This document shows positions 454 to 14,205 of a DNA stretch of 17,612 nt, piece by piece. A program made the translations under genes and the position numbers. Position 1 is the stretch's first letter. Each line of letters opens with the position of its first letter. The stretch comes from a virus. Under the pieces are notes generated by a model. That model ran no database searches, was not told the origin of the DNA, and worked only from the letters and a program-made list of their open reading frames with translations. The DNA lies in the IMG/VR virus record IMGVR_UViG_3300033121_002167, positions 64,001 through 81,612 of that record. The stretch is one strand, 5' to 3'.

Positions 454-462
454 AATTTATAA
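454..462 (-). promoter_or_regulatory. T4-late-promoter-like element TATAAATT, one mismatch from TATAAATA, lying 30 nt upstream of the ATG at 423.
   Basis: The minus strand reads TTATAAATT across 462-454 and includes the TAA stop of the upstream gene. It is the only such motif on the coding strand in the window. Confidence 0.2.
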
Positions 463-1050
463 CTTCTTCTTCGGCGTGATGGGTGTAGGACCTGACGTAT
501 TTTCAGCACCAGAGTCTTTGTTGACCTTGGGTGTCTGGGATACGATGACGTTGGGCTTGATGTGCTTCGTCTTCGGACCCTTCTCCATCTTCACGTCTGA
601 CGGCTTGTCGCCTGGATCTGCTGCATCTTGTGCTGCGACCTCGCCAGTTACGATCTGCGCGATTCCTTTCAAGAACGCTAGAAGTGCTGTTTTCTCCGCA
701 GATGACAACGAGTTGATGTACTGCTCCATCGCAGACGCAACTTTCTCATCTCTAAATGAGTGACCCGATCTTATGGTGTTGAGCTTCTCAATGACGTCGG
801 TGTGATCGATGTCACCACTCTCCATCTCGCTCTTCTCGTCTTCAGCCGTCTTTGAACCGTGACTCTTTTCATCTTGTGAATCTGCTGGCGGAGATGGTGC
901 CGGATCTGGAGCGTTCGAAGCCATGGCGTCTTGCTTCTCTTTCTCCTGAAGTGACTTCTGGTACAGTCCCGCCTTGACGCTCTCGCTGATGACAGTGTCC
1001 AAGAGCTTACCAAGGCTACGTCCTGTAGTTATCTTGACGTTATTTTTCAT
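457..1050 (-). CDS. Hypothetical acidic, low-complexity protein, about 197 aa (DPAPSPPADSQDEKS... region).
   Basis: The ORF-track start at 1059 is GTG. The in-frame ATG at 1050-1048 (MKNNVKITTG...) has GGTGG 5 nt upstream. The stop TAA at 459-457 is embedded in a TTATAAATT motif. Confidence 0.55.
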   Translation of the reverse strand: MKNNVKITTGRSLGKLLDTVISESVKAGLYQKSLQEKEKQDAMASNAPDPAPSPPADSQDEKSHGSKTAEDEKSEMESGDIDHTDVIEKLNTIRSGHSFRDEKVASAMEQYINSLSSAEKTALLAFLKGIAQIVTGEVAAQDAADPGDKPSDVKMEKGPKTKHIKPNVIVSQTPKVNKDSGAENTSGPTPITPKKKL

Positions 1051-1300
1051 GTAAACCACCGAACCTGGTTCTGTTCAACGGACGCTCTTGGTGACGACGA
1101 GCTCTTTCTCTCTGAGGAGAATCGACCACTTTTTTCCTTGGACTAACTCGCGATTCTTTCAGAACGATAGAGTCCATGAACTTGTCAAACGTGTAACCTT
1201 CGTTGACATCATCGTGCAGGAGCTTTCCAGTTCCATCGCACTTCTCGCAGTCGCCGCCAGCACCATCGCAATCAGTGCAATCTTCTTCGATCTTCTCCAT
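1040..1300 (-). CDS. Small protein with an N-terminal DnaJ-type zinc finger (two CxxCxGxG repeats: CTDCDGAGG and CEKCDGTGK).
   Basis: ATG at 1300-1298 with GAGGA 8 nt upstream. The CxxCxGxG repeat is the hallmark of the DnaJ cysteine-rich domain. The C-terminal third is Arg-rich. Confidence 0.55.
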   Translation of the reverse strand: MEKIEEDCTDCDGAGGDCEKCDGTGKLLHDDVNEGYTFDKFMDSIVLKESRVSPRKKVVDSPQRERARRHQERPLNRTRFGGLHEK

Positions 1301-2982: not shown

Positions 2983-3738
2983 CTACAAAATTACAAATCC
3001 ACCAACAATTGCAGACTCAGTAAAACTAGAACCGTGCGTATAAATACGTCTATTTCTATCGATACAACAACTACCACCTTTGTACTTCAGATCGCGCTCG
3101 GTACCAACTCTGTTTGACACAATGACATTTGCTCTTGTGTCTTCAACAAGCTCAACCCAGGCTGAATCTGGGTACCCATAGGCACCGCCCCAGTTCGTCA
3201 GAAGAGCAATCATGTCGACAGAGCCTTTGCTGTAAAATTTCTGCCCAGGCTTGTAAAAAGCGTACGATTCTCTGTAGTGATTCATTGCATCCCTGCAAAC
3301 TAGCGCTCCCAGCCGACCGACTGGCGTCACGACTAGTGCATGAAGGGCTTCTGAGGGCTGCGCCCAAATGTTGTCATTACCCCATAGGTTGCTTTTCTGC
3401 GAATTCCCTGCGAGGCCCGAGGGACCCACGATGGCCGCTGAGTTGTACAGCTTACCTTCATAGAGCTCCGGGTAGCCAAAGACAATGTAGCAGTTGTAAC
3501 GATTGGCAATTGGGATGAACGCTTCTGTCTGATACCCATCACGTTCCTGAGCACACTCCATTGCTTCACGAGGAGATCGCAACGCAAACCCAGAAGTGCA
3601 AAGCTCAGGCAGAACGATGACACGGGCACCTTTCGCCGCGGCTTCGAAAGCTAGTTCAGTAGCAACAGCCAGATTCTTCTGGACGTTGAGCAGCTCTGGG
3701 TTGAACTGCGCCGCGGCAACTATTGCTACGTCGTTCAT
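2983..3738 (-). CDS. Carbon-nitrogen hydrolase (nitrilase superfamily) protein, 251 aa.
   Basis: The catalytic triad context matches the family: VIVLPE (Glu), GKLYNSAAIV (Lys) and GALVCRDAMN (Cys nucleophile). It has the expected alpha-beta-beta-alpha length and the expected N-terminal strand VAIVAAAQFNP. Confidence 0.7.
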   Translation of the reverse strand: MNDVAIVAAAQFNPELLNVQKNLAVATELAFEAAAKGARVIVLPELCTSGFALRSPREAMECAQERDGYQTEAFIPIANRYNCYIVFGYPELYEGKLYNSAAIVGPSGLAGNSQKSNLWGNDNIWAQPSEALHALVVTPVGRLGALVCRDAMNHYRESYAFYKPGQKFYSKGSVDMIALLTNWGGAYGYPDSAWVELVEDTRANVIVSNRVGTERDLKYKGGSCCIDRNRRIYTHGSSFTESAIVGGFVIL

Positions 3739-5407
3739 TGATTCTCTTTCTTGCAGTTAACACTAGCGGAAACGTAGAGTCGCAATCTGCGCAGTAAATT
3801 TCGTCAGCTTCTGCTTGGTGGGTGTTCGCGCCGCCGCAAGTTGGGCAAGGTGCATCACCCGTGTGATGATACTCTTGCTCTTCTGCAGATGGCTCAAGAC
3901 CCTCAAGGCTCTGCATGATGTCAGGGAAAACATCGTACATGTACTCTAGGGCTTCTGGGCTGAATTCACGATCACCAAAAGCATCGTTAAGCGCAGACTC
4001 CAACGAAACTGGGTCTGTGATAGATGATGCACCAGAAGAAACGAGCTGTTCAACTTCGCTCCTAGAGACTAGATCTTCATCAACGGGTGAGCCCATCGTC
4101 TCAAGAACGATCGTCAGCGGACCCTTCTTGATTGTGCGAGTCCGGGAGCGAGATTCACCAACTGGTTCCCAAACTTGGGTGTGATCGCCCGTTGGCTTCT
4201 TAACCTTCAGCTTGCCATCTTCAGGCGAGACAATGCCAGACTCTCCTGGCTTGAACTCTGATGCACCCATCTTGCCAAAGACTTTGCCCTTGTAACGTGT
4301 GACAACAGAAGCACCGTTGTACTTCTGGCCGCCCTTGTAAACCTTGTACGAATCCTTGCTGGCTTTTGGCTCTCTTGGTGCCTTTGGAGCTGCTGGCTCA
4401 CTTGTTGACTCTGCACCCGACTCTTCTGGTGCAGCACTCGTTGGTGCAGTTGGATTGTACAGCTTCTCACCACCACGTGCACGCCTGATCGATTTGTCAA
4501 GAAATTCGCGGAAACCATCTAGATCTCTGACGATGTCTGGATGTGCTTTCATGAGAGCAACGTCAGAAGCCGATAGCTCACCCGAACGGCTCAGCATCTT
4601 GATGTAGTCGTTCATGCTCGACAAGACAATGATCTCAAGATCCTCTGGCGACTTGTCTTGCATGTCAGCAACCCACTGTGCTTTCAGCATTGCCTTGTCA
4701 ACAGCTTGCTTCGCGCCGGCAACTGAAAAACCAAGATCCTTAGCGATATCTTGGAACGATGCACCAGAAACGTCTGACACGGTGTTGAACTTTGCTCTCT
4801 CTGGCACGTCAGACGTCGTGTCTTCCAGCGGATCCTCAACTGGATTCTTCATGATCTTCTTCAGATCTTTCTTCGACTTGTCAAACTTTGACATGTACTC
4901 GCTGCCATGAACGCCAGCTGGGATCTTTGTGACAGGCGGAAGCGGTCCAACGACCGGTCCGAAATTCTTTGGTTTCTTGTCAAATGGCGCTTCAGAAACA
5001 ATGTTAAGTTCTTGCAGCTGCTTGCGAACAGCTAGCCTGATGAGTGATTCAGCTGCTGTGTCTTTTGTAGCGCTCTTTGTGCCCGTCGTCTTCTTGTTTT
5101 TCATCGTATCTTCCTTTTCGTCGGGCACGTCAAGGGCCCCCACTAGCTTTTCATACACGTCAGAAACTTTTTCGTCTGGCAGATCGTCGCTTAGGGCCTT
5201 CACAGCAACTTGAAATTCAGCTTTGTTGTTTGGCTTGTAGTTCGGATTGCTAGGATCAGTAAGTATTGCTGACTGATCAACAACTGGGTTGACATCAACA
5301 GGATCATCCACCTCTTCAAGGCAAACTTGCCCGAACTTCTTGTTATCAAGAAGCTCTGATACAAGCTCGCGCAATGCTGTCCTGGTGACAGTGATCTTTT
5401 GTGCCAT
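3656..5407 (-). CDS. Large hypothetical protein, 583 aa. It is acidic and Lys-rich, with a C-terminal CxxC...CxxC zinc ribbon (CPTCGG...CADCD) and a possible HTH-like segment (SFQDIAKDLGFSVAGAKQAVDKAMLKAQ).
   Basis: ATG at 5407-5405 with AAGGG about 6 nt upstream. Its own frame is closed 12 codons upstream. Its last ~27 codons overlap the C-N hydrolase start out of frame. Confidence 0.65.
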   Translation of the reverse strand: MAQKITVTRTALRELVSELLDNKKFGQVCLEEVDDPVDVNPVVDQSAILTDPSNPNYKPNNKAEFQVAVKALSDDLPDEKVSDVYEKLVGALDVPDEKEDTMKNKKTTGTKSATKDTAAESLIRLAVRKQLQELNIVSEAPFDKKPKNFGPVVGPLPPVTKIPAGVHGSEYMSKFDKSKKDLKKIMKNPVEDPLEDTTSDVPERAKFNTVSDVSGASFQDIAKDLGFSVAGAKQAVDKAMLKAQWVADMQDKSPEDLEIIVLSSMNDYIKMLSRSGELSASDVALMKAHPDIVRDLDGFREFLDKSIRRARGGEKLYNPTAPTSAAPEESGAESTSEPAAPKAPREPKASKDSYKVYKGGQKYNGASVVTRYKGKVFGKMGASEFKPGESGIVSPEDGKLKVKKPTGDHTQVWEPVGESRSRTRTIKKGPLTIVLETMGSPVDEDLVSRSEVEQLVSSGASSITDPVSLESALNDAFGDREFSPEALEYMYDVFPDIMQSLEGLEPSAEEQEYHHTGDAPCPTCGGANTHQAEADEIYCADCDSTFPLVLTARKRINERRSNSCRGAVQPRAAQRPEESGCCY

Positions 5408-5730
5408 AATTCGCCCTTGGGAGCTTCTGCTTGCGAGATGTTAGGATTGCCAAGCTTCGCGTCCGTCCACTTCCTACCGAAGTAAAGAGCAAGGATCGGA
5501 GAGAAGTAGCTGGCGCATGCAGCAACATCGAATGGACGGACATGAATGGGACCAAGCGTCTCAAACATGGAGAGCACGTAAGCCAACGTTGTAACCCAAA
5601 ACGATACGAAGACAAGAGTGACAGTGACGCTTCCGTAACCACGACTGTCACGAATCCAAATTCTTGATGGCGAGACTTCACTAGGATCATTAGATGGTGG
5701 CAAATTTTCATTTGCTGTATTGTCAGACAT
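5200..5730 (-). CDS. Small membrane protein with two predicted transmembrane helices (VTVTLVFVSFWVTTLAYVLSMF and FDVAACASYFSPILALYFG).
   Basis: I place the start at the ATG at 5730-5728 (MSDNTANENL...), which has GAGG 7-8 nt upstream. The track start at 5742 is a second in-frame ATG. The last ~70 codons run out of frame across the start of the 583-aa gene and look like overprinted, non-native sequence, so the true C-terminus is uncertain. Confidence 0.45.
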   Translation of the reverse strand: MSDNTANENLPPSNDPSEVSPSRIWIRDSRGYGSVTVTLVFVSFWVTTLAYVLSMFETLGPIHVRPFDVAACASYFSPILALYFGRKWTDAKLGNPNISQAEAPKGELWHKRSLSPGQHCASLYQSFLITRSSGKFALKRWMILLMSTQLLISQQYLLILAIRTTSQTTKLNFKLL

Positions 5731-6514
5731 GTTCAACCTCATTATTTTCAGATATTTCTTGTCGATGTTTTTTCCACCACAATTTCATTGTTTCGCTATG
5801 TGATTTCCGAAAATCAACATTTTCCCAACGTTCGCAAGCTGATTTTCGTCTCTGCTCAGCTAGTTCTGATTTTTCATATGATCGTTTAACGCCGGCACTA
5901 ATTCGCTTTCGAACATTTTCATCTTGACGTGATTTTTTAGACGCCTCCGTCAAATGAAGCAAGTGTTCAGATGAAACACGTCGACCACTCAATTTTCTAG
6001 AAATACGTTCGCGAACTTCAGGAGTTCGTGAAGCTTTGCTTGAAGCACTCAATTTTTGACGCGTTTGTTTTGAAACAACACGGTTACTTGCAACATCAGA
6101 AAGATGTTGACGAACACCTGGTTTGTTCATACCAATACGGGTACGTTCAGAAATAATTTTGCGAATTTCGCTACTCGGATTTGAAATTCCTTCGCCCCCA
6201 ATCGTTTTGTTACATCTGATGTCATCTAGCGACAAACGAAACGAAGGATTGAATGTATCAAGTTCTTTTATCAGATAAATTTCATAATCAAAAGCTTGAT
6301 TTTCGTCCAGTGTTTCAAAAACAATTTCTCTTCTCAATCCCAAATGATGAGAAACAAATTTGTGATGCTTGTTACGACGTTTGTTTTTAACACGAGAAGA
6401 ATTTCCTTTTCCAACATAAAACGCGCGAGGTTCAATTTCAGTTGTGTAATCGACATACACATACCACTTAGACTGAACCTCAGTTGGATCAGCGGCTTTC
6501 TTCTCTTCTTCCAT
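5723..6514 (-). CDS. GIY-YIG homing endonuclease with C-terminal NUMOD3-like repeats (Seg-like, free-standing), about 264 aa.
   Basis: KWYVYVDYTTEIEPRAFYVGKG gives GIY-x10-YIG. The conserved Arg/His (RVKNKRRNKHH), Glu (FDYEIYLIKEL) and Asn (TFNP) are present. At least five repeats of the NUMOD3 type occur (SEIRKIISERT, TRQKLSASS, PEVRERISRKLSG, ENVRKRISAGVKRS, SHSETMKLWWKKH). The gene is strongly AT-rich. The track ORF starts at a GTG at 6628, giving a spurious Cys/Trp-rich extension. The real start is most likely the ATG at 6514-6512, which has GAGG 9 nt upstream. Confidence 0.85.
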   Translation of the reverse strand: MEEEKKAADPTEVQSKWYVYVDYTTEIEPRAFYVGKGNSSRVKNKRRNKHHKFVSHHLGLRREIVFETLDENQAFDYEIYLIKELDTFNPSFRLSLDDIRCNKTIGGEGISNPSSEIRKIISERTRIGMNKPGVRQHLSDVASNRVVSKQTRQKLSASSKASRTPEVRERISRKLSGRRVSSEHLLHLTEASKKSRQDENVRKRISAGVKRSYEKSELAEQRRKSACERWENVDFRKSHSETMKLWWKKHRQEISENNEVEHV

Positions 6515-6549
6515 GTCGACAACCTCTGGTCCTAAATAGGCTGTACAGA
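5723..6549 (-). mobile_element. AT-rich homing-endonuclease island inserted between a membrane-protein gene and the coiled-coil/secreted protein gene.
   Basis: Composition drops to AT-rich exactly over the endonuclease ORF, with GC-normal flanks. Confidence 0.55.
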
Positions 6550-7044
6550 TCATTTGGTCGCATGCGATAGAGCAAAAACGGTGAGCACGGTGAAAACGGC
6601 GCCGCCAGCAAAACCACCAGCAGCCCACAGCATGGGATTGCTAGAGCTAGATGATTGCTTTCGAATCTCTTCGTTTAGCGCAGCAATCTCTTTTTCTTTT
6701 GCAACGATTGATGCACTTAGGATCTTCTTCTCAGCGTCAGTCGTCGCTTGAAGTTCTACGAGCTTGAACTGCGACTGTGCGGCAGCTTCAGCTTTCGCCT
6801 TGTCAACTTCGATCTTCACTTGATCTTTGGAAGAATTTAGCTGCACGATGATGCTTGCAACAGCTTTTGGCGATAGCAAAACACCGGTGTAAGGTGCTGG
6901 CTCACCCTTTTTCATAGGAGTCGTCACAGCACCAGGATCTGGTTCAGCAGATGGAACTGCTGGCACAGTCAACCCTTCGCATCGACCAGGGATTGCTGAA
7001 AAGAAGAACGTCAGAAACGTTACTAGCGTGATGAACTTTTTCAC
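6550..7044 (-). CDS. Secreted or membrane-anchored coiled-coil protein, 164 aa. It has an N-terminal signal-like hydrophobic segment (KKFITLVTFLTFFFSAIPGRC), a central coiled coil and a C-terminal transmembrane helix (MLWAAGGFAGGAVFTVLTVFAL). It may be a spanin-like lysis component.
   Basis: The start is a GTG at 7044-7042 with GGTGG 3 nt upstream, overlapping the TGA of the upstream gene as GTGA. There is no in-frame ATG until far downstream. The topology resembles unimolecular or outer-membrane spanins, but the lipobox is not canonical (PGRC). Confidence 0.5.
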   Translation of the reverse strand: MKKFITLVTFLTFFFSAIPGRCEGLTVPAVPSAEPDPGAVTTPMKKGEPAPYTGVLLSPKAVASIIVQLNSSKDQVKIEVDKAKAEAAAQSQFKLVELQATTDAEKKILSASIVAKEKEIAALNEEIRKQSSSSSNPMLWAAGGFAGGAVFTVLTVFALSHATK

Positions 7045-7433
7045 TTACCACCCGTGGGGATGACAACTGTGAAACCTGCCGCTTCCGACAGTTGCTTTGA
7101 AAGCTCGGTCGGATCATCGCTCCACTTTTTCACGATGTTCTCGATCTCCTTACGCTTCTTCTCGTCAAGGTCTCTCTTAGCAGCTTCGTACTGCTGCTGG
7201 ATTGACATCAACGTTTCATTGAGCTTACGCTCGTTCTCGATGTGAGCTTTTCGCTCTTCTTCACGTGCCTCATTGATCTTCTTAATCTCTTCCTCGTGCG
7301 CCTTCTTGATATCTGACAGCTGGTCAGAAAAAGAAGATTTTTGCTTCGTAAAGATGAAGAAACCAGCGACAGCAATGAGAAATCCAACGGCAAGTTGCCA
7401 GTAAGCTTTGACGAATGCCCAAAATTTTGCCAT
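7041..7433 (-). CDS. Membrane protein with an N-terminal transmembrane helix and a long charged coiled coil, 130 aa. It is i-spanin-like (Rz-like) or another envelope-acting protein.
   Basis: ATG at 7433-7431, followed by FWAFVKAYWQLAVGFLIAVAGFFIF and then a KK/EE-rich helical region (EEEIKKINEAREEERKAHIENERKLNE). Its frame is closed 17 codons upstream of the ATG. The ribosome-binding site is weak. Confidence 0.55.
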   Translation of the reverse strand: MAKFWAFVKAYWQLAVGFLIAVAGFFIFTKQKSSFSDQLSDIKKAHEEEIKKINEAREEERKAHIENERKLNETLMSIQQQYEAAKRDLDEKKRKEIENIVKKWSDDPTELSKQLSEAAGFTVVIPTGGK

Positions 7434-7747
7434 CGTAAGTTCGGCTTGTTCGGGACTTCTTTTGTCTTTGTTGCGGGAGCATATTCAGCTGGTTTTCCCT
7501 TCAACAGTTCGATGATCTTCTTCTGCGTTGCTTCAATCTCAGCAATGCGCTCATTGTGAACCTTGTAGGCTTTAGCAAGAGAGACAATCGACTTAGCGAC
7601 TGAACTAACGTTGATAGACAGAGCTAGGATGTCAGACTTGGTCTCAGTCAACATCCCAGATGCTGACATCAAGTACTCAAATGCATCAATCGCTTTCGCC
7701 AGCAGCTTCTCTTCGAGCGATTTCTTCAAGTTTTTCACGTCTTTCAT
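7208..7747 (-). CDS. Hypothetical protein, 179 aa as an ORF, with a helical N-terminal ~105 aa. The last ~75 codons overlap the next gene out of frame and look non-native (Arg/Ser-rich).
   Basis: ATG at 7747-7745 with GAGGA 3-4 nt upstream. The 226-nt overlap with 7041..7433 is in the -1 frame relationship. An A5/T5 homopolymer stretch (AGCAAAAATCTTCTTTTTCTG) lies inside the overlap. Confidence 0.45.
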   Translation of the reverse strand: MKDVKNLKKSLEEKLLAKAIDAFEYLMSASGMLTETKSDILALSINVSSVAKSIVSLAKAYKVHNERIAEIEATQKKIIELLKGKPAEYAPATKTKEVPNKPNLRWQNFGHSSKLTGNLPLDFSLLSLVSSSLRSKNLLFLTSCQISRRRTRKRLRRSMRHVKKSEKLTSRTSVSSMKR

Positions 7748-8039
7748 TTTCCTCTATTAGAGTATACATCGCTTCAGCGTCAAGTTCATGCAATTTTTTG
7801 CCGTAATCTCTCTTGGGCTTTGGAGCATCATCGAGAGCTGCACGTATTTTCTTCGTCACTAGACCTTTCAAGACGTTGTAACCCGGCCCAGCGTCATCAA
7901 TAACTTGCCTAGCGAACTCATCAAATAGTTCTTGAAGAGAAACACCATGATGGAAAGATTTAACGCGTAGTTCAGCATGCACCTCTTTGTCAAGGTTGAT
8001 GTGCAAGCTTTTCTTTGTGACAAGCGCGTCAGATTTCAT
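7686..8039 (-). CDS. Putative ribbon-helix-helix (Arc/MetJ/CopG-like) DNA-binding protein, 117 aa.
   Basis: It has a beta-strand then helix-helix pattern: SLHINLDKEVHAELRVKSFHHGVSLQELFDEFARQV. ATG start. It overlaps its neighbour by 62 nt. Confidence 0.5.
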   Translation of the reverse strand: MKSDALVTKKSLHINLDKEVHAELRVKSFHHGVSLQELFDEFARQVIDDAGPGYNVLKGLVTKKIRAALDDAPKPKRDYGKKLHELDAEAMYTLIEENERREKLEEIARREAAGESD

Positions 8040-8598
8040 GAACTAAGACTGCTCCTCCTCCGCCGACGCCTCCATCACCTGCTCGATCAGCTGGCGGTGC
8101 AGTGAATTCATCTTCCATTTCATCCCTTGACTTACCGATCTCCATGCCATGCTCGTTGCGAAGCTGCTCTTTGAATGAATCAGCAACTGACTCATCGTAA
8201 TTCTTCGACAAGAAGTTTGACGCCCTACGCAAGATCGTATTTCTAACTTCTAGCAAGGAGTCGTAGTTGTCTATCAACCTGACAACGCCGTTGACAAAAG
8301 AGCCCACGTCGATGTCTTCAACAGTAAGCTTCTTTGGTTCATCGCTAGAATCATCACCCTTGTCGTCATCTTCACCAGCTTCAACGATTCGACGCACAGT
8401 CATTCGCCAATCGCGACCTTCGGTCTTTGCGGACTTTGCTTCTTTCTCATAGTCATTCAAGTAACGATCGACCTGAGAGTCTAGTGAATCTTCTCCCGGC
8501 TCTTCTGCTGGTGGCGCCGGCGCTTCGCCTTCTTCTCTGAGAATCTCTTCCCTTAGAACACGCCGAAGATCACCCAAGCGAACCTTAAAAGTCTTCAT
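8029..8598 (-). CDS. Hypothetical acidic protein, 189 aa (Glu/Asp-rich, Gly-run near the C-terminus).
   Basis: The ATG at 8598-8596 overlaps the TGA of the SOD-like gene in an ATGA arrangement. Confidence 0.55.
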   Translation of the reverse strand: MKTFKVRLGDLRRVLREEILREEGEAPAPPAEEPGEDSLDSQVDRYLNDYEKEAKSAKTEGRDWRMTVRRIVEAGEDDDKGDDSSDEPKKLTVEDIDVGSFVNGVVRLIDNYDSLLEVRNTILRRASNFLSKNYDESVADSFKEQLRNEHGMEIGKSRDEMEDEFTAPPADRAGDGGVGGGGAVLVHEI

Positions 8599-9311
8599 GA
8601 CTTCACCGCCACGCCGATTGCTTCAGCTCTCTTAAAACGATCTTCGCAAACTTCCCAATTGATCTCTCTCATCTGAGCGATCAAGTAGCTCTTCTTGTCG
8701 GTCAAGTAGTCTCTAGCGTATGCATGCTCCCACATGTCGACAACGATCACTGGGTAGAAGCCTAGTGGGATATCTCCACTGTGGTGGCTGATTGGAACGT
8801 TGATGTACTTCTTCAAGAAAGTGTGATATCCGCAAACAGCCCATCCATTTCCAGCAGCCATGGCACATGCGATGAAGTCACGTTGCCAATCTTCGAACGT
8901 TCCGAAGTCTCTCTGCAGCTTGATGTAAGCGATTGAATCCATCACGATCTCAGAATGAGGATCGTAGCAGTTCGCAAAGTACAGCTCGTGAAGCCACACA
9001 GCATTGAGGTTGTACGCTTCATCAAGCTTCAATGACCTGAAGTCACTGTGCTTTGAATTTGAAGCGCCCCTGTCAGCAGTGTCAAGCTGCGCTGAAACAT
9101 TGTTCAACGTATCAACGTACTCACGGTAAAGAGTTGTGTGCGCTTCTTTTGTCTTCTGCGAAACCATCTCGGAGACTTGCTTGAACGGCTTCGGTTCTGC
9201 AACGTAAGACTCGTTGATCTTTCCAACTTCTTTCACAGCAGCCGAGCGCGATAGCGCATCTCTGATCGTCTTATCAAGGTCTAGACCTTCTAGTATGTTC
9301 TTTTTGCTCAT
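8595..9311 (-). CDS. Fe/Mn superoxide dismutase-like protein, 238 aa, with a ~40-aa N-terminal extension.
   Basis: The C-terminal signature DMWEHAYARDY corresponds to the D-x-W-E-H-A-Y-Y motif that carries the Asp and His metal ligands. Other matches are GNGWAVCGY (GSGWxWL-like), NAVWLHELYF (NAAQxWNHtFyW-like, with His) and HTTLYREYVDTLNN (HHxxYVxxLN-like). The ATG has AAGGA 9 nt upstream. Confidence 0.65.
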   Translation of the reverse strand: MSKKNILEGLDLDKTIRDALSRSAAVKEVGKINESYVAEPKPFKQVSEMVSQKTKEAHTTLYREYVDTLNNVSAQLDTADRGASNSKHSDFRSLKLDEAYNLNAVWLHELYFANCYDPHSEIVMDSIAYIKLQRDFGTFEDWQRDFIACAMAAGNGWAVCGYHTFLKKYINVPISHHSGDIPLGFYPVIVVDMWEHAYARDYLTDKKSYLIAQMREINWEVCEDRFKRAEAIGVAVKS

Positions 9312-9609
9312 GATCTTTTCCTTGTAAGCTTAGCTCGTAATTCTTTTCAAGTTCTTCTGCATCAATCAGGAATTTTTCACCCTCTGGCGTCCTGAGTATG
9401 CAATCGTTAGGACCGACTGAATCCACTGTGTAGCGAATTCCACTGTTCTTGTGAAGAACTTTCAGCTCTGGAGCGATGATCATCTTCTCTTCTCCTTTGC
9501 CGATCTTTGCAGTCATCGCAACGTCGACGGTCTCCGTTAGAGACGCAACACGTGAGTCCCACTCTTCACGGAAGACTTCTATGATGTCCTTATCAGTAAG
9601 TGCTCTCAT
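9274..9609 (-). CDS. Hypothetical protein, 111 aa.
   Basis: The ATG at 9609-9607 overlaps the TGA of the dCMP deaminase gene (ATGA). It overlaps the next gene by 38 nt. Confidence 0.5.
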   Translation of the reverse strand: MRALTDKDIIEVFREEWDSRVASLTETVDVAMTAKIGKGEEKMIIAPELKVLHKNSGIRYTVDSVGPNDCILRTPEGEKFLIDAEELEKNYELSLQGKDHEQKEHTRRSRP

Positions 9610-10043
9610 GTTCTCGATGTAAGTATTGTGTCCGATGTTCTCATGACTTCAATACCAACTGATTGCAGCAAGACAAGACCTGACGAATCCCTGTACTGGA
9701 TGTCATACACGACCCTAGAGATTCCAGCGTTGATGATCATCTTGGCACACATCCGACACGGTGAATGAGTCACGTACATGTGCTTCTTCTTCGGAAAGTT
9801 ATAATCGAGCTTGATTATAGCGTTAGCCTCAGCATGCAAGAAACCGCTAAGACCAGGTTCGCTCGATTCTTTCTCGTGAGGTCCACCCTTGTAGTTCCCG
9901 TTGTACCCAATCGAGAGCATCTGCGTGTTATCGTCAGAAACGACGATCGCTCCCACTTTGAGAGCATCGTCGTACGATCTAAGAGAGATCGTCTTTGCTA
10001 CTGACATCCACGTTTCAGGCCACGGAACAGCGTTGTTGGTCAT
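9606..10043 (-). CDS. cd: Deoxycytidylate (dCMP) deaminase, zinc-dependent cytidine/dCMP deaminase family.
   Basis: HAEANAI (the zinc His plus catalytic Glu) and SPCRMCAKMIINAGI (the PCxxC zinc ligands). The track start at 10076 is TTG. I chose the ATG at 10043-10041, which overlaps the thymidine kinase TGA as ATGA (MTNNAVPWPETW...). Confidence 0.85.
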   Translation of the reverse strand: MTNNAVPWPETWMSVAKTISLRSYDDALKVGAIVVSDDNTQMLSIGYNGNYKGGPHEKESSEPGLSGFLHAEANAIIKLDYNFPKKKHMYVTHSPCRMCAKMIINAGISRVVYDIQYRDSSGLVLLQSVGIEVMRTSDTILTSRT

Positions 10044-10609
10044 GTTAGCACTATGAAAGGATGACATCGCAAGCAACGCGGCTCGTATAGCTCGTGCCCG
10101 CCAACTTCAAGCAACGTTTCATCTTCGCTCTTCTTGTACGTAAAATGAGCATCTTGCGAGCAGATCGTGCACACTGCTGAGCACTTCTCTATTGACGTTG
10201 CCCAAGGCAACATCTTTGTCACTTCATCGAACGGTTTGCCGTTGAATGCAGTGTCAAGCGTTGACACTATGATGTTGTATCCGTTCCTGTACAAGAACGT
10301 CAAAGCATCAGCAACGCCGTTGATCATGAAAGCTTCATCTACTGCGATGATGCTAATGTCGTTGTTCTGCTCTTCAAGAACTTTCGCAAGGATACCTTCT
10401 GCGTTATTGACAGTGACTGCATCGTGACGCCAACCGCCGTGCGTCACGATCTGAGACGTAGAGTAGCGATCATCTATCGCAGGCTTGAAAACTAGAGCGT
10501 TTCTCTTCTGGTACTTGCAACGCTCAAGCTCCATCAACAATCGAGATGATTTTGATGACCACATGGGTCCGACGTACATCACGAATGTTGGATTAGCTTG
10601 CTTGCTCAT
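10040..10609 (-). CDS. tk: Thymidine kinase (type II, Tdk-like), 189 aa.
   Basis: P-loop YVGPMWSSKSS, Walker B/acceptor region AVDEAFMI, and the C-terminal zinc motif CSAVCTICS...CLRCH. ATG start. Confidence 0.9.
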   Translation of the reverse strand: MSKQANPTFVMYVGPMWSSKSSRLLMELERCKYQKRNALVFKPAIDDRYSTSQIVTHGGWRHDAVTVNNAEGILAKVLEEQNNDISIIAVDEAFMINGVADALTFLYRNGYNIIVSTLDTAFNGKPFDEVTKMLPWATSIEKCSAVCTICSQDAHFTYKKSEDETLLEVGGHELYEPRCLRCHPFIVLT

Positions 10610-10628
10610 GATCGCTACTCTAACCGGT

Positions 10629-11186
10629 CTAGAGCGCTAGTAATCCGACAACGACAAGCGTGTCGAACGGAGGAGCGCACCCGGCATTCTCTTCTGCGGC
10701 AGCCTTGAGAGAATCCAGAACTCTCTTCTTCGCCGGCCCCACGCCCTTCGAAGCCTTCAATGCACCCAACGCTGCAGGGGATCCAGAGCCAACAGAAGCG
10801 TAACCACGAGCACTCTCAACGAGCTGGAAGTTTCCCTCGAGCTCGTGCAGCTCACCCCTGTATGCAATGAGTAGCGCACCGTGGAAGTAGTGCTGACCAC
10901 GATGCTCCTCAGTACAATCAAACTTCTTCAAACCTTCGCGGATCGCAGGTACCCACTTGCTGACAAGATAGTCCTTCGCAGAACCGCTCTCGTGCGGCGG
11001 GAATTCGATGCCATGCTTGATAGCATCCATGACCTTAGGCAACCCGCAAACACCAACGCCGATGCCGTTCTTCAAGAAGATCTTCGGATGCTTCAAGAGA
11101 ACCCTGTCTAGACCGCCACCAGTTGCTGCACGATCACCACCGAGCCAAACGTTCTTTCCCTCAACGACGCCAACAATAACAGTCAT
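10629..11186 (-). CDS. HslV/proteasome beta-subunit-like N-terminal nucleophile peptidase, 185 aa.
   Basis: It starts MTVIVGVVEGKNVWLGGDRAATGG, compared with HslV [24 protein letters not shown], so Thr is at position 2 and would be the Thr1 nucleophile after Met removal. A Lys in HPKIF sits at the HslV Lys33-like position. The Gly-rich GVGVCG and YASVGSGSPAALGALKA match the HslV GSGG region. There is a strong ribosome-binding site, AAGGAG. Confidence 0.65.
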   Translation of the reverse strand: MTVIVGVVEGKNVWLGGDRAATGGGLDRVLLKHPKIFLKNGIGVGVCGLPKVMDAIKHGIEFPPHESGSAKDYLVSKWVPAIREGLKKFDCTEEHRGQHYFHGALLIAYRGELHELEGNFQLVESARGYASVGSGSPAALGALKASKGVGPAKKRVLDSLKAAAEENAGCAPPFDTLVVVGLLAL

Positions 11187-11362
11187 TTTCCATTCTCCTT
11201 TTCTTCTTTGTAGTTCACTTCAGTCTGCCAGGCTACTTTTATGAGCTCAACCACTTGATCAATGCTCAACCCGAGCATCTCACCGAGCTCAACGACGCTT
11301 CTTACTGCTACCTCGAACATCTTCTCAATCGATGGTAGCTGATCTCCTTTTTGCTTTGCCAT
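11183..11362 (-). CDS. Small hypothetical protein, about 59 aa (MAKQKGDQLPSIEKMFEVAVRSVVELGEMLGLSIDQVVELIKVAWQ...).
   Basis: The ATG at 11362-11360 lies immediately after the TAG of the hydroxymethylase gene. A longer version from the ATG at 11413 would overlap by 50 nt. Weak support. Confidence 0.35.
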   Translation of the reverse strand: MAKQKGDQLPSIEKMFEVAVRSVVELGEMLGLSIDQVVELIKVAWQTEVNYKEEKENGK

Positions 11363-11363
11363 G

Positions 11364-12023
11364 CTATTCAACCAAGTGCCAATGCTTTTGGTATACGTGC
11401 AAAGAACCAGCATGCCAAATCATGGGACCAACTTTGACGCCCAGATCGTGAGCAAGCTGCTTGTGAACGTAGTCTTGCCAGACGCGGTCGTTGCGATATC
11501 CATACAAGACATCGTTCGACCTCATGCGAACGTCAGCAACCAGCTCTCCATTTCTGACGAAGTACTGGACTGAATCAGTACAGATGAAGTCGCTCATCCC
11601 GCTACGGTTGTAATCTTTCCAGATCGAAGGACGCGTGTACACCATCTCTGCGCGGCGGCTTTCTGGAGCTCGACGAAGTTCAGCTAGAACGTTGCTGTAC
11701 TGATCGTGATTCTCAGGGCTCCAGATAAGATAACCATAGTTCGAGTTGATCTCACCGTTAGGTGTAGCGCATGCAACCCAAGCAGCAGGTGCACCGCCAG
11801 GGATATCATGAACGTTAAGAGACATAGACTTGTACCACTCGATCTCCCTAGCTGCGTAGTCCCTGTTCACGGTCCCAAAGATAGCTTCTTCATCCGCAAT
11901 GAACGTTGCACCTATGACCTCAATCATCTTGCAACCTGTTTTGTCGGTCACGTGCTCGCCGGATGCTTTTAGCTCACGGAACCAACTCCGAACATCGCTG
12001 ACTCTATGCTCAATTCGTATCAT
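11364..12023 (-). CDS. Deoxycytidylate 5-hydroxymethylase (T4 gp42-like, thymidylate-synthase fold), 219 aa.
   Basis: Blocks match T4 gp42 as I remember it: DKTGCKMIEVIGATFIADEE, REIEWYKSMSL, GEINSNYGYLIWS, ESRRAEMVYTRPSI, GMSDFICTDSVQYF (Cys nucleophile) and MRSNDVLYGYRNDRVWQDYV. The Asp in the RND motif, where thymidylate synthase has Asn, is the cytosine-specificity determinant. The C-terminal HAGSLHVYQKH matches the TS/CH GDAHIY region. Confidence 0.85.
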   Translation of the reverse strand: MIRIEHRVSDVRSWFRELKASGEHVTDKTGCKMIEVIGATFIADEEAIFGTVNRDYAAREIEWYKSMSLNVHDIPGGAPAAWVACATPNGEINSNYGYLIWSPENHDQYSNVLAELRRAPESRRAEMVYTRPSIWKDYNRSGMSDFICTDSVQYFVRNGELVADVRMRSNDVLYGYRNDRVWQDYVHKQLAHDLGVKVGPMIWHAGSLHVYQKHWHLVE

Positions 12024-12174
12024 TCGTCTTCATCTCCAGGTCCAGCACCTTGTCTTCTAGCGTTTGAATTCTCACCTTCATCTCATTGTGTGCCCTAATG
12101 TCAACGATCGACAGAACGATCGTGAACAGCAACAGCACCCATAGCATGAAGTGGACGTGATGATCTGATTTCAT
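12010..12174 (-). CDS. Unlisted small membrane protein, 54 aa (MKSDHHVHFMLWVLLLFTIVLSIVDIRAHNEMKVRIQTLEDKVLDLEMKTNDTN).
   Basis: It is not in the ORF track because it is under 60 aa. The ATG at 12174-12172 overlaps the epimerase TGA as TGATG. It has one clear transmembrane helix followed by a charged helix. It ends 14 nt inside the hydroxymethylase start and fills an otherwise 150-nt gap in a gapless operon. Confidence 0.45.
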   Translation of the reverse strand: MKSDHHVHFMLWVLLLFTIVLSIVDIRAHNEMKVRIQTLEDKVLDLEMKTNDTN

Positions 12175-13142
12175 CAGACGTTAAGCTTTAGGTTCTTTGC
12201 CCAGTCCCAATTGTTGTCGTACCAATCGCATGTGCGAGCGATACCTTCCCAAACAGGAACTTTTACGCTGTACGCAAGGTAAACTGATGCACCGCTGATG
12301 TTTGCTAGCGTTCGCTTCACATCACCTGCCCGTGTGGGCGCAACGTTGAGCTTGAACCCGCCGTAACGCTTCAGAAGGTAAAGAATGATGTCGTTGTTGG
12401 ATACTTCAGTTCCACATGCTACGTTGAATCGATGCGCTTCAGCAGATGGAAGCTGCGCTGTTGCGGCCTTCATGCATGCATCAACAACGTTGTCAACGTA
12501 ACACAAGTCTCTTGATTGAGAGCCGTCACCATCGAAGCGAAGCGGTTCACCCTTCTTGATAGCCGTCAACCACGCGGCGAGCGCAGTTGCGTACGGAGAA
12601 CCACCCAGCGCGTTGGGTCCAAAGACGTTGAAGAACCTCAAGGAGACAGAATCTAGACCGTAGAACGTCTTGTACAACGTCAAGTAATCTTCGATGATAG
12701 ATTTCTGAAGCGCGTACGGCGACTTGGGATTCTTCTCTTCGCTCTCATGCGTGGGTAGCTTAAGAGCGCCGCCGTACACTGAAGAAGATGAAGCAAAGAC
12801 GAACCGTGTGATGTTTCCTCTGCATGCTTCCAGCAACTTCAGCGTCTTCGTGACGTTTGCATCGTTCGTTTCAAACGGATGCTCCACAGAGTACGAAACT
12901 CTTGGAACAGCAGCAAGATGGATGACAACGTCAAACTCTTTGTCCCTGATCTTCTGAAGAACTGCTTCATCAGAAAAATCACACTTAAATTCACGAATTT
13001 CTCGAAGAGTTGAATCGCTCAAAAATTCTGCGTGCCCATTAGAAAAATCATCAGCACCAGTAACTGTCCAACCAGCAGCTACGCATGCTGCTGTCAAATT
13101 TGAACCAATGAACCCTGCGTAGCCAGTTATGAGGACTTTCAT
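12174..13142 (-). CDS. NAD-dependent nucleotide-sugar epimerase/dehydratase (extended SDR, UDP-glucose 4-epimerase-like), 322 aa.
   Basis: Rossmann motif VLITGYAGFIGSNL, the catalytic YALQK (YxxxK), and the Ser-rich ASSSSVYGG upstream of it. The length and domain order are typical of GalE/WbpP-like enzymes. Confidence 0.85.
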   Translation of the reverse strand: MKVLITGYAGFIGSNLTAACVAAGWTVTGADDFSNGHAEFLSDSTLREIREFKCDFSDEAVLQKIRDKEFDVVIHLAAVPRVSYSVEHPFETNDANVTKTLKLLEACRGNITRFVFASSSSVYGGALKLPTHESEEKNPKSPYALQKSIIEDYLTLYKTFYGLDSVSLRFFNVFGPNALGGSPYATALAAWLTAIKKGEPLRFDGDGSQSRDLCYVDNVVDACMKAATAQLPSAEAHRFNVACGTEVSNNDIILYLLKRYGGFKLNVAPTRAGDVKRTLANISGASVYLAYSVKVPVWEGIARTCDWYDNNWDWAKNLKLNV

Positions 13143-13226: not shown

Positions 13227-13469
13227 TTAAAGCGTCGTCACCTCGTAAGAGCACCGAGCTCTAACAGCATCACGGAGACGTTCACGAAGATCATTCATGT
13301 CGACGGTGTGAGTTCTCAGCTCGCTGAACTCATCGAGCAACTTGCTCAACACGTCTGGTGCATCAGAAAAGTCTGGCGAGCCCATGAAAGGGTGCCCTCC
13401 TGCATCTCGAGCCAGCTTAGAATATTCGAAATAATTGGTCAATGAGATACCGGTATATATTTCCCGCAA
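13227..13469 (-). pseudogene. Remnant of the native 3' end of the glycosyltransferase gene, displaced by the homing-endonuclease cassette.
   Basis: This ORF has a TTG start and a stop codon immediately upstream. Its translation REIYTGISLTNYFEYSKLARDAGGHPFMGSPDFSD...RCSYEVTTL aligns over its full length with the C-terminus of the 446-aa glycosyltransferase (RECTELGCVPLTLNCNEYARLLKLSSFPIYCNPDFSD...RCSYEETTL). The remnant is GC-rich like the host genome, whereas the glycosyltransferase's current 3' end is AT-rich like the endonuclease. Confidence 0.6.
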
Positions 13470-14205
13470 TTATTCCCTTAACTTGGCTAATACGAAGATC
13501 GTATTTCTTGGCAAGATCTTTTTGAGTATACAATCCAGTTTGATAATCACTTCTAAGATCATTTACTGTCGCTCGTAGATGATCATTTCTTTTGATTCTA
13601 GCTGCGGCTATTTTTTGTTTAACTTCAACTCTTTGTTGAACTTCTTTTTGCTTTATGGAAGCTTTCAATCTAAATTCATCACTTCTGAAGATTTCTCGCA
13701 AGTTCTCGATTCGTTGTTTTGCTTTTTCTTCATCACTAGCCCAATTTTTCTTAAGTGATGAAGAAATACGCTGTTTGGTTTCTTCTGTTTGATGACCACG
13801 CAATTTTCTTACTTTGCTTTTCATCTTAAGTCTAAAACTAGGATCCTTCCACAATGCTTTAAATCGATCACTTATCAATTTTTTCTGGTGTGCTGTAATA
13901 CCACGCACGCCCTCGCCACCAGAAGTAAGATTTAGCAACATTACGCCACTTTTCTTAAGAGACGAGATGGTTTCAATTTCGTGTGCGTATGAATCTTCTT
14001 CATTACTAGTGTGATAAACACACTTAAATTCAAACGCGTCTAGACCATAAGTTCGCATGTTCGCATACAAATGACTTCTACCCCTAAATTGACCCGTAGA
14101 ACCAAAATAACGATGTATTCGCCAGCGACAAGCTAGATCATTAGTTTTTCCGACATAAACTTCTGACGTAATCGTATTTGTAATAGTGTATACAAAGAAT
14201 CCCAT
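13417..14205 (-). CDS. GIY-YIG homing endonuclease with NUMOD3 motifs (Seg/I-TevI-like, free-standing), 262 aa.
   Basis: GFFVYTITNTITSEVYVGKT gives GIY-x9-YVG. Also present are RWRIH, YAHEIETISS (Glu) and LLNLTSGG (Asn). NUMOD3-type repeats include HQTEETKQRISSSLKKNW, the consensus GxxHSEETKxKIS. It is strongly AT-rich, has an ATG start and no ribosome-binding site. Confidence 0.9.
   Translation of the reverse strand: MGFFVYTITNTITSEVYVGKTNDLACRWRIHRYFGSTGQFRGRSHLYANMRTYGLDAFEFKCVYHTSNEEDSYAHEIETISSLKKSGVMLLNLTSGGEGVRGITAHQKKLISDRFKALWKDPSFRLKMKSKVRKLRGHQTEETKQRISSSLKKNWASDEEKAKQRIENLREIFRSDEFRLKASIKQKEVQQRVEVKQKIAAARIKRNDHLRATVNDLRSDYQTGLYTQKDLAKKYDLRISQVKGIIAGNIYRYLIDQLFRIF

Follow-up and report, generated by a model that had tools for sequence, protein, structure and literature searches.

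We analysed a 17,612-nucleotide stretch of viral DNA (the window; positions 64,001 to 81,612 of IMG/VR record IMGVR_UViG_3300033121_002167) that carries, on the strand complementary to the one presented, a gene for a homologue of the Fe/Mn superoxide dismutases (SODs). Because the metal site of the window protein is intact and strictly conserved, an active Fe-type SOD is the best reading of this gene, and we hold with moderate confidence that it encodes a functional, probably Fe-preferring enzyme of the SodFM4 type. The gene is a conserved gene of an uncultured 270–370 kb phage lineage. An N-terminal leader, a conserved junction at the end of that leader, tight coupling to the next gene downstream and the existence of orthologues without metal ligands are its unusual parts, and they mark it as a variant, specific to phages, of a known enzyme family.

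Family membership and metal site

A first-pass annotation, made from the letters of the sequence, had described the product as an Fe/Mn SOD homologue with a full ligand set. Profile, structure-sequence and Foldseek searches agree on this. The Pfam model Sod_Fe_C matches residues 131-224 with 65.6 bits (E 4.7e-18) and passes its cut-off of 20.9. By sequence (HMMER), the closest solved structure is the FeSOD of Aquifex pyrophilus, 1COJ (E 3e-25, query residues 47-232), and about 160 other Fe/Mn SOD chains match in the same search. We also built an AlphaFold2 (AF2) monomer model from 67 family sequences, with a predicted local distance difference test score (pLDDT) of 75.7. Foldseek aligns this model to 1COJ with E 4e-13 and template modelling (TM) scores of 0.71/0.80, so that an SOD fold is recovered by profile search and by structure search. 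In total, 254 PDB matches were found at E <= 0.001, and among the matches listed 50 of 50 are Fe/Mn SODs. The secondary structure of the model, with helices at 52-78 and 90-114 followed by three strands and more helices, is that of the two-domain SOD fold. Searches of PHROGs with the SOD protein and of the window with PADLOC gave no match.

The motifs named in the first-pass annotation were all found, namely DMWEHAYARDY (D192, H196), WLHELYF (H108) and HTTLYREYVDTLNN (H58). In a MAFFT alignment with E. coli SodA and SodB, which served as alignment anchors only, H58, H108, D192 and H196 fall on the four ligand positions. H58 is also the first-ligand His in the HMMER alignments to 1COJ and 1MA1, and the N-terminal ligand His that had been claimed is recovered in both kinds of alignment. 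The four residues are invariant among 117 homologues (63-100% identity). They are likewise invariant in 81 of 81 syntenic sequences (48-100% identity), a set made up of the window and 80 IMG/VR loci (L088-L167), and they are intact in most phage-type representatives clustered at 50% identity. Further catalytic residues, Y65, W157, W194, E195, Y198 and H177, are conserved as well. The geometry of the ligands at H58, H108, D192 and H196 is predicted from these alignments.

If the protein works as its homologues do, a single Fe (or Mn) ion would be bound by these four side chains and a solvent molecule, and the metal would cycle between its 3+ and 2+ states while two superoxide anions are converted to O2 and H2O2. 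The bound solvent would be hydrogen-bonded by H177, the substrate funnel would be gated by Y65, and E195 and H196 would bridge the dimer interface. Expression of such an enzyme during infection would be expected to lower superoxide in the infected cell.

Fe/Mn SODs have been split into five subfamilies, SodFM1-5 (Sendra et al. 2023, PMC10172142). According to that study, the water-coordinating His is C-terminal in most members of SodFM3 and SodFM4, which form tetramers, the last His of HxxxHH is lost in SodFM4, and a Val or Thr two residues ahead of the Asp ligand accompanies Fe preference. SodFM4 is described there as the most divergent subfamily, largely uncharacterised and with one crystal structure. 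SOD activity was assayed on E. coli extracts expressing SodFM4s, and metal preference was measured for two archaeal SodFM4s and their mutants; phages and viruses are not mentioned. Because it has H177, V190 and no HH pair, the window protein fits this little-studied subfamily, SodFM4, with a predicted preference for Fe. L61 and Y62 stand in for His30 and His31 (H58-T-T-L61-Y62). H58 and Y65 are 7 residues apart, compared with the canonical 8, and helix 1 is one residue short. In the HMMER alignments the one-residue gap falls directly ahead of H58 against 1IDS and directly behind it against 1COJ and 1MA1, and the register is thus ambiguous by one.

Orthologues lacking metal ligands

Several observations weigh against reading the protein as a working dismutase. 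At the level of profiles, Sod_Fe_N scores 19.4 bits, below its cut-off of 27, and the NCBIfam SOD equivalogs score 86, 44 and 28 bits, compared with cut-offs of 300-363. The combination of Leu for His30 with a helix 1 shorter by one residue is absent from all solved structures compared. Of the 81 syntenic sequences, all of which still have the four ligands, 21 carry Q, S or A at the position of E195. Finally, about nine of roughly 40 phage-type 50% representatives lack one to four ligands. At least three of these ligand-poor representatives are syntenic orthologues and not paralogues. P0151 (ligand positions L,F,N,N) shares 41% identity with the query and lies upstream of an orthologue (E 1e-10) of p189, the product of the gene directly downstream of the SOD gene in the window, with the same genes following. 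The locus of P0127 (L,H,N,H) is arranged in the same way, and P0159 (L,L,A,E) stands in the block epimerase - ThyA - ... - deaminase - p111-like - SOD-like - p189-like. All three also retain the 4-nucleotide (nt) overlap with the partner gene. Mutual identity among the nine ligand-poor representatives is 30-49%, and 57 positions are conserved in at least seven of the nine, including E34 and many family-specific residues.

Residue 195 is the dimer-bridging Glu of the D-x-W-E-H motif, and the subunit interface may differ among sublineages.

Because ligand-less orthologues are retained and conserved, catalysis is not what maintains the family everywhere. The suggestion of the first-pass annotation that the protein may have been repurposed gains indirect support from them, although the metal site of the window copy is intact. 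The ligand-less protein is maintained in several lineages, and therefore the family probably has a second, non-catalytic role, which plausibly involves p189. Since one locus holds intact enzymes in some phages and ligand-less orthologues in others, the family amounts to a natural experiment on what an SOD fold offers beyond catalysis.

It could be argued further that the conserved job of the family is the non-catalytic one, that the SOD fold is there to support or bind another protein, most plausibly p189, and that dismutation is vestigial or optional. The syntenic orthologues without ligands would agree with this, as length, neighbouring genes and the 4-nt overlap with the orthologue of p189 are all retained in them, and so would the 57 positions common to the nine ligand-poor representatives. 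SOD and p189 are adjacent in 68 of 80 loci, the fold has documented non-enzymatic uses, and PAP4/FSD3 chains are among the solved-structure matches. However, the window protein and all 81 syntenic sequences (at least 48% identity) keep the four ligands, Y65, W157 and H177, and such strict invariance is hard to explain without metal binding. p189, moreover, has no recognisable fold or family, and an interaction with it is hypothetical. We find it unlikely, though worth keeping in mind, that catalysis is secondary throughout, and we continue to favour an active Fe-type SOD for the window.

Occurrence among phages and origin

The identical SOD protein is encoded on dozens of contigs, the longest of 313,755 bp, with the same neighbours in the loci that were fetched, and the contigs of its relatives span 271-369 kb. 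At E <= 0.001 the family comprises 1072 clusters (90% identity), and we collected 174 IMG/VR loci on contigs of up to 369 kb. The earlier view that phage-borne Fe/Mn SODs are uncommon thus holds for deposited records but not for phages in nature. Among 50,697 deposited phage records searched by tblastn, SodB matches 30 and the window SOD matches 12. Several of the SodB-matching records (for example those from Staphylococcus, Salmonella and Listeria, 42-52% identity to SodB) look like host DNA. No isolate-phage record has a relative closer than about 28% identity, and neither megablast with the whole window nor tblastn with the neighbouring proteins p583 and p189 matched anything in the same 50,697 records. 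In the BFVD database the only phage SOD models are two distant ones, at 20% identity, and a search of the literature on phage or jumbo-phage SODs found no report of this family.

Whether the gene is host-derived was a question left by the first-pass annotation, and the answer is that it is not. Among 185,579 GTDB species representatives, matches reach at most 36% identity, apart from two mis-binned phage contigs, whereas the phage clade holds together at 48% or above. In a neighbour-joining tree the phage sequences form one clade beside Aquifex-like and Thermoplasmatales sequences, away from SodA and SodB and inside no bacterial group. A recent capture of a host gene, or host DNA contaminating the contig, would have some precedent, since several deposited phage records do carry clearly host-type SOD genes. 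Against it stand the identical protein on dozens of contigs with the same neighbours, the synteny over 80 IMG/VR loci, the finding that across the 185,579 genomes matches above 36% occur only on two contigs with the phage gene block, and the monophyly of the phage sequences. The GTDB search, the tree and the contig context lead us to reject a host-derived origin as far as these data allow, and we regard recent capture or contamination as extremely improbable.

The phage gene block is also present on both exceptional contigs, L008 (JBBAUR010000009.1, in a Bdellovibrionota metagenome-assembled genome) and L009 (NHDW01000006.1, 305,838 bp, Methylococcaceae TMED69). Both look like contigs of jumbo phages that binning has placed in bacterial metagenome-assembled genomes.

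Leader, junction and possible packaging

The first-pass annotation had also noted an N-terminal extension of 40 amino acids (aa), which it took to suggest altered oligomerisation or localisation. The extension is real and conserved, but its length is about 33-34 aa. The SOD core starts at about S35, the same point as in SodB and the nearest cellular relatives. Across the 81 orthologues, leader residues of about 7-20 form a conserved amphipathic helix, while residues 21-31 are a linker that is variable in length and sequence, with pLDDT below 50. The linker ends in a junction, I32-N33-E34-S35, in which E34 is invariant in 81 of 81 orthologues. The junction is present in all but a few phage-type 50% representatives, ligand-less members included, with extensions of 9-114 aa, and the N-termini of cellular relatives fall exactly on it. 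The leader and the tight coupling to p189 both suggest an additional role, in protein-protein contacts or in targeting. ChrC-type and Geobacillus SODs of the N-terminal-domain type were considered as relatives of the extension and set aside, as their motifs differ.

One specific form of such a role would be packaging. The T4 prohead protease gp21 cuts after L/I-X-E, and short N-terminal propeptides direct proteins into the head (PMC9026906). Giant-phage proteases cleave after X-X-E, with propeptides down to 20-24 aa (PMC10052503). I32-N33-E34|S35 fits the L/I-X-E end of a short T4-type propeptide. The leader might then be a capsid-targeting propeptide, docking the SOD, and perhaps p189 too, into the prohead as head-internal cargo; a gp21-type protease would cut at L/I-x-E34|S35, and the mature protein would be ejected with the DNA and act at the start of infection. 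The junction agrees with this in being invariant in 81 of 81 sequences and kept whatever the leader length, even in proteins without ligands, and in lying at the cellular start point, after a low-confidence linker. Both protease specificities, and the short propeptides that go with them, argue in the same direction. p189 and a further window protein, p200, have a similar layout, their leaders ranking best in profile comparisons, although weakly (P 7e-4 to 4e-3), and purified virions of phage PA5oct were found to contain its distantly related SOD-like protein. On the other hand, the genes around it are nucleotide-metabolism and lysis-like ones rather than head genes, and a test for a shared leader by hidden Markov model (HMM) was not significant. 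An L-x-E motif is short, and E34 could be structural. The PA5oct protein is without this leader, and the PA5oct virion list includes enzymes classed there as virion-unrelated. We therefore consider packaging distinctly improbable, and an enzyme acting in the infected cell is the reading that we retain. If packaging were true, a mature enzyme of canonical length would meet the earliest oxidative response of the host, and it would be the first Fe/Mn SOD known to be packaged by a bacteriophage and a new kind of ejected phage cargo. The lineages without a metal site would then retain a purely structural internal protein.

In p189 and p200 an N-terminal amphipathic helix leads to a conserved [LIV]-x-E and then to low-complexity sequence that is acidic, and the N-terminus of a third protein, p583, is an amphipathic helix that resembles the SOD leader. 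When the profile of the SOD leader was compared with those of 61 segments drawn from 16 neighbouring families, the top three of the 61 were all N-terminal and all weak, p200 (6.7e-4), p583 (8.7e-4) and p189 (4.4e-3). A search of the window proteins with a leader HMM for a common tag gave nothing significant beyond the SOD itself, with p200 the best other match (E 0.09). A regular expression matched p111, SOD and p189, but it was derived after the fact. We take a shared N-terminal tag among window proteins as a lead and not as a finding.

Gene order around the SOD gene

The SOD gene is translationally coupled to its neighbours and has a fixed place in a long co-directional block. The order is epimerase - thymidylate synthase - thymidine kinase - deoxycytidine monophosphate (dCMP) deaminase - p111 - SOD - p189 - ribbon-helix-helix-like p117, then membrane/spanin-like proteins - ... 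- carbon-nitrogen hydrolase - pterin-4a-carbinolamine dehydratase. This order is conserved over the 80 IMG/VR loci, with the deaminase upstream of SOD in 78 and the dehydratase found in 64. In one of four fetched loci with an identical SOD, a DNA polymerase III alpha gene lies about 9.5 kb upstream. The SOD open reading frame (ORF) starts with ATG. Within 6500-12200, a scan for promoter-like sites found none, and the number of terminator-like sites was no higher than chance. Coordinates of the features are collected in Table 1.

The 4-nt overlap of SOD and p189 is retained in the distant lineages L171, L174 and L175. Sequence searches with p189 in Pfam, NCBIfam and PDB gave no match, and its AF2 model (pLDDT 69, predicted TM score 0.43) has no significant counterpart among known folds. 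On the other side, the p111 N-terminus is conserved as MKxLxExDIIRxMREEW.

Table 1. Features of the SOD gene, its product and nearby genes in the window.
Feature	Position	Strand	Basis and remarks
SOD-like gene (SodFM4-like Fe/Mn superoxide dismutase homologue)	8595..9311	-	238 aa plus stop; ORF list, Pfam, structure searches
Shine-Dalgarno-like motif AAGGA	9319..9323	-	8-12 nt 5' of the SOD ATG; direct sequence reading
N-terminal leader, residues 1-34	9210..9311	-	Column statistics on 81 orthologues; AF2 confidence
Junction I32-N33-E34-S35, consensus [LIVMF]-x-E-[AS]	9207..9218	-	81/81 orthologues; cellular N-termini
SOD N-terminal alpha-hairpin domain, residues 35-120	8952..9209	-	AF2; alignment to 1COJ; long inter-helix insert as in Aquifex FeSOD
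SOD C-terminal alpha/beta domain, residues 121-238	8598..8951	-	Pfam Sod_Fe_C and AF2; extended C-terminal helix 219-237
H58 codon (CAC), first metal ligand (E. coli FeSOD His26 equivalent)	9138..9140	-	Alignments, conservation
Y65 codon, gateway Tyr34 equivalent	9117..9119	-	7 residues past the ligand His; alignments, conservation
H108 codon, second metal ligand (His73 equivalent)	8988..8990	-	Alignments, conservation
H177 codon, C-terminal water-coordinating His	8781..8783	-	Aligns with M. tuberculosis FeSOD His145 (1IDS); His in 111/117 homologues
V190 codon, X(D-2) position	8742..8744	-	Val is an Fe-preference marker (PMC10172142); V in 115/117 homologues
D192 codon, metal ligand (Asp156 equivalent)	8736..8738	-	Alignments, conservation
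H196 codon, metal ligand (His160 equivalent)	8724..8726	-	Alignments, conservation
p111, upstream gene	9274..9609	-	Overlaps the SOD start by 38 nt; upstream in 48/80 loci
p189, acidic protein, downstream partner	8029..8598	-	ATG overlaps the SOD stop (ATGA); downstream in 68/80 IMG/VR loci
p200, protein with leader-like N-terminus	457..1059		
p583, protein with leader-like N-terminus	3656-5407		
Homing-endonuclease-like genes (three)	2110-2973, 5723-6628, 13417-14205	-	Two PHROG homing-endonuclease matches, one GIY-YIG

Other parts of the block vary. Three homing-endonuclease-like genes interrupt it, and their presence differs by strain, because the identical-SOD strains L001-L004 are without some of them. 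The dCMP deaminase (9606-10076) has 156 aa in the window and 428 aa at L001 (8289-9575) and in L002-L003, where the SOD is 100% identical. In the 428-aa version of L001-L003, a Cys-rich N-terminal region of about 290 aa is fused to a different deaminase allele. The two alleles (HAEINAISHA/PCIMCAK versus HAEANAIIKL/PCRMCAK) represent local mosaicism directly beside the SOD gene. Between the thymidylate synthase and thymidine kinase genes lies a gene for an HslV-family peptidase-like protein (10629-11186, minus strand; PHROG 1040, E 1.5e-15).

Downstream of SOD, p189 and the ribbon-helix-helix gene, the minus-strand genes at 7041-7433, 6550-7044 and 5200-5742 encode small membrane or signal-peptide proteins that are conserved across the lineage. 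One protein, p130, has weak matches to Rz-like spanin PHROGs, and the run of membrane proteins may be a lysis cassette. The carbon-nitrogen hydrolase (2983-3738) and the pterin-4a-carbinolamine dehydratase (1739-2113), also on the minus strand, are a conserved pair that ends the block. L006 has an extra carbamoyltransferase, seen in some relatives, and a thymidylate-synthase homologue of 336 aa. The hydrolase/dehydratase pair and these features of L006 may hint at nucleotide or base modification.

Discussion

The label of an Fe-Mn SOD was already known, and annotation pipelines stop at 'Fe-Mn family superoxide dismutase'. What is new is the pattern at the level of the family, which is fixed in a widespread uncultured phage lineage, and a possible targeting or processing signal. 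We consider this of mild importance, because the family is common in such phages, is missing from isolate and PHROGs collections, and includes proteins that sometimes outlive their metal site. SodFM4, of all SOD subfamilies the least characterised, also gains from it a branch in phages and a form with a shortened helix, and no structure of that form exists.

The closest comparison is with SodFM4 enzymes and 1COJ. The phage protein shares with them the two-domain SOD fold and the four ligands, at about 30% identity and the TM scores given above, as well as the C-terminal water-coordinating His, Val at D-2 and the loss of the last His of HxxxHH. It further resembles 1COJ in the long insert between the two N-terminal helices and in an extended C-terminal helix. 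It differs in having H-x2-L-Y where 1COJ has H-x3-H-Y, with a shorter helix 1 and His30 lost, in its 33-aa N-terminal leader and conserved junction, and in being encoded by a phage.

The short helix form, H-x2-L-Y-x2-Y, is also cellular. It is seen in proteins annotated as SODs from Thermoplasmatales and from the eukaryote Andalucia godoyi, in Eremiobacterota, Rokubacteria, Melainabacteria and Patescibacteria genomes, and in proteins of cultured Geothrix (Holophagaceae) that carry a twin-arginine translocation (Tat) signal. These SODs (H-x2-L-Y-x-G-Y-V...WEHAYx(R/K)DY) share the shortened helix 1, L/Y for HH, the C-terminal His and the WEHAYxRDY motif. However, they are 26-36% identical to the phage protein, none has the phage neighbour genes, and they start at the junction without a leader or, in Geothrix, have a Tat signal peptide. 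To our knowledge, none of them has been characterised.

Among isolated phages, Fe/Mn SOD homologues with ligands present and L-Y for HH are found in jumbo phages of 287-349 kb, namely those of the Pseudomonas phage PA5oct group (EST35_0261) and Vibrio phage 2.275.O (NVP2275O_049). Their proteins differ in being about 24% identical, with canonical helix spacing, a truncated hairpin (183-190 aa) and no leader or junction. They occupy a separate branch of the tree, and their neighbourhood contains a ClpS-like adaptor and ribosomal protein S21. EST35_0261 (L168) is annotated as 'hypothetical protein', with a note of detection in purified virions by ESI-MS/MS (tandem mass spectrometry after electrospray ionization). 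It adjoins ClpS-like, ribosomal protein S21 and FtsH-like genes, and the neighbourhood in Vibrio phage 2.275.O is similar.

Poxviruses retain catalytically dead Cu/Zn SOD homologues. The virion-packaged proteins of giant viruses have been reported to include superoxide dismutase (PMC9405923). Such viral Cu/Zn SODs, packaged or inactive, resemble the phage protein by analogy only, as their fold and metal are unrelated and their carriers are viruses of eukaryotes.

Proteins with the Fe/Mn SOD fold and a non-enzymatic role include the plastid-encoded RNA polymerase subunits PAP4/FSD3 and PAP9/FSD2 and SOD-like proteins of the mitoribosome. These are a precedent for the SOD fold as a structural subunit. 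The phage protein has no specific kinship with them and, unlike them, the window protein retains the full active site.

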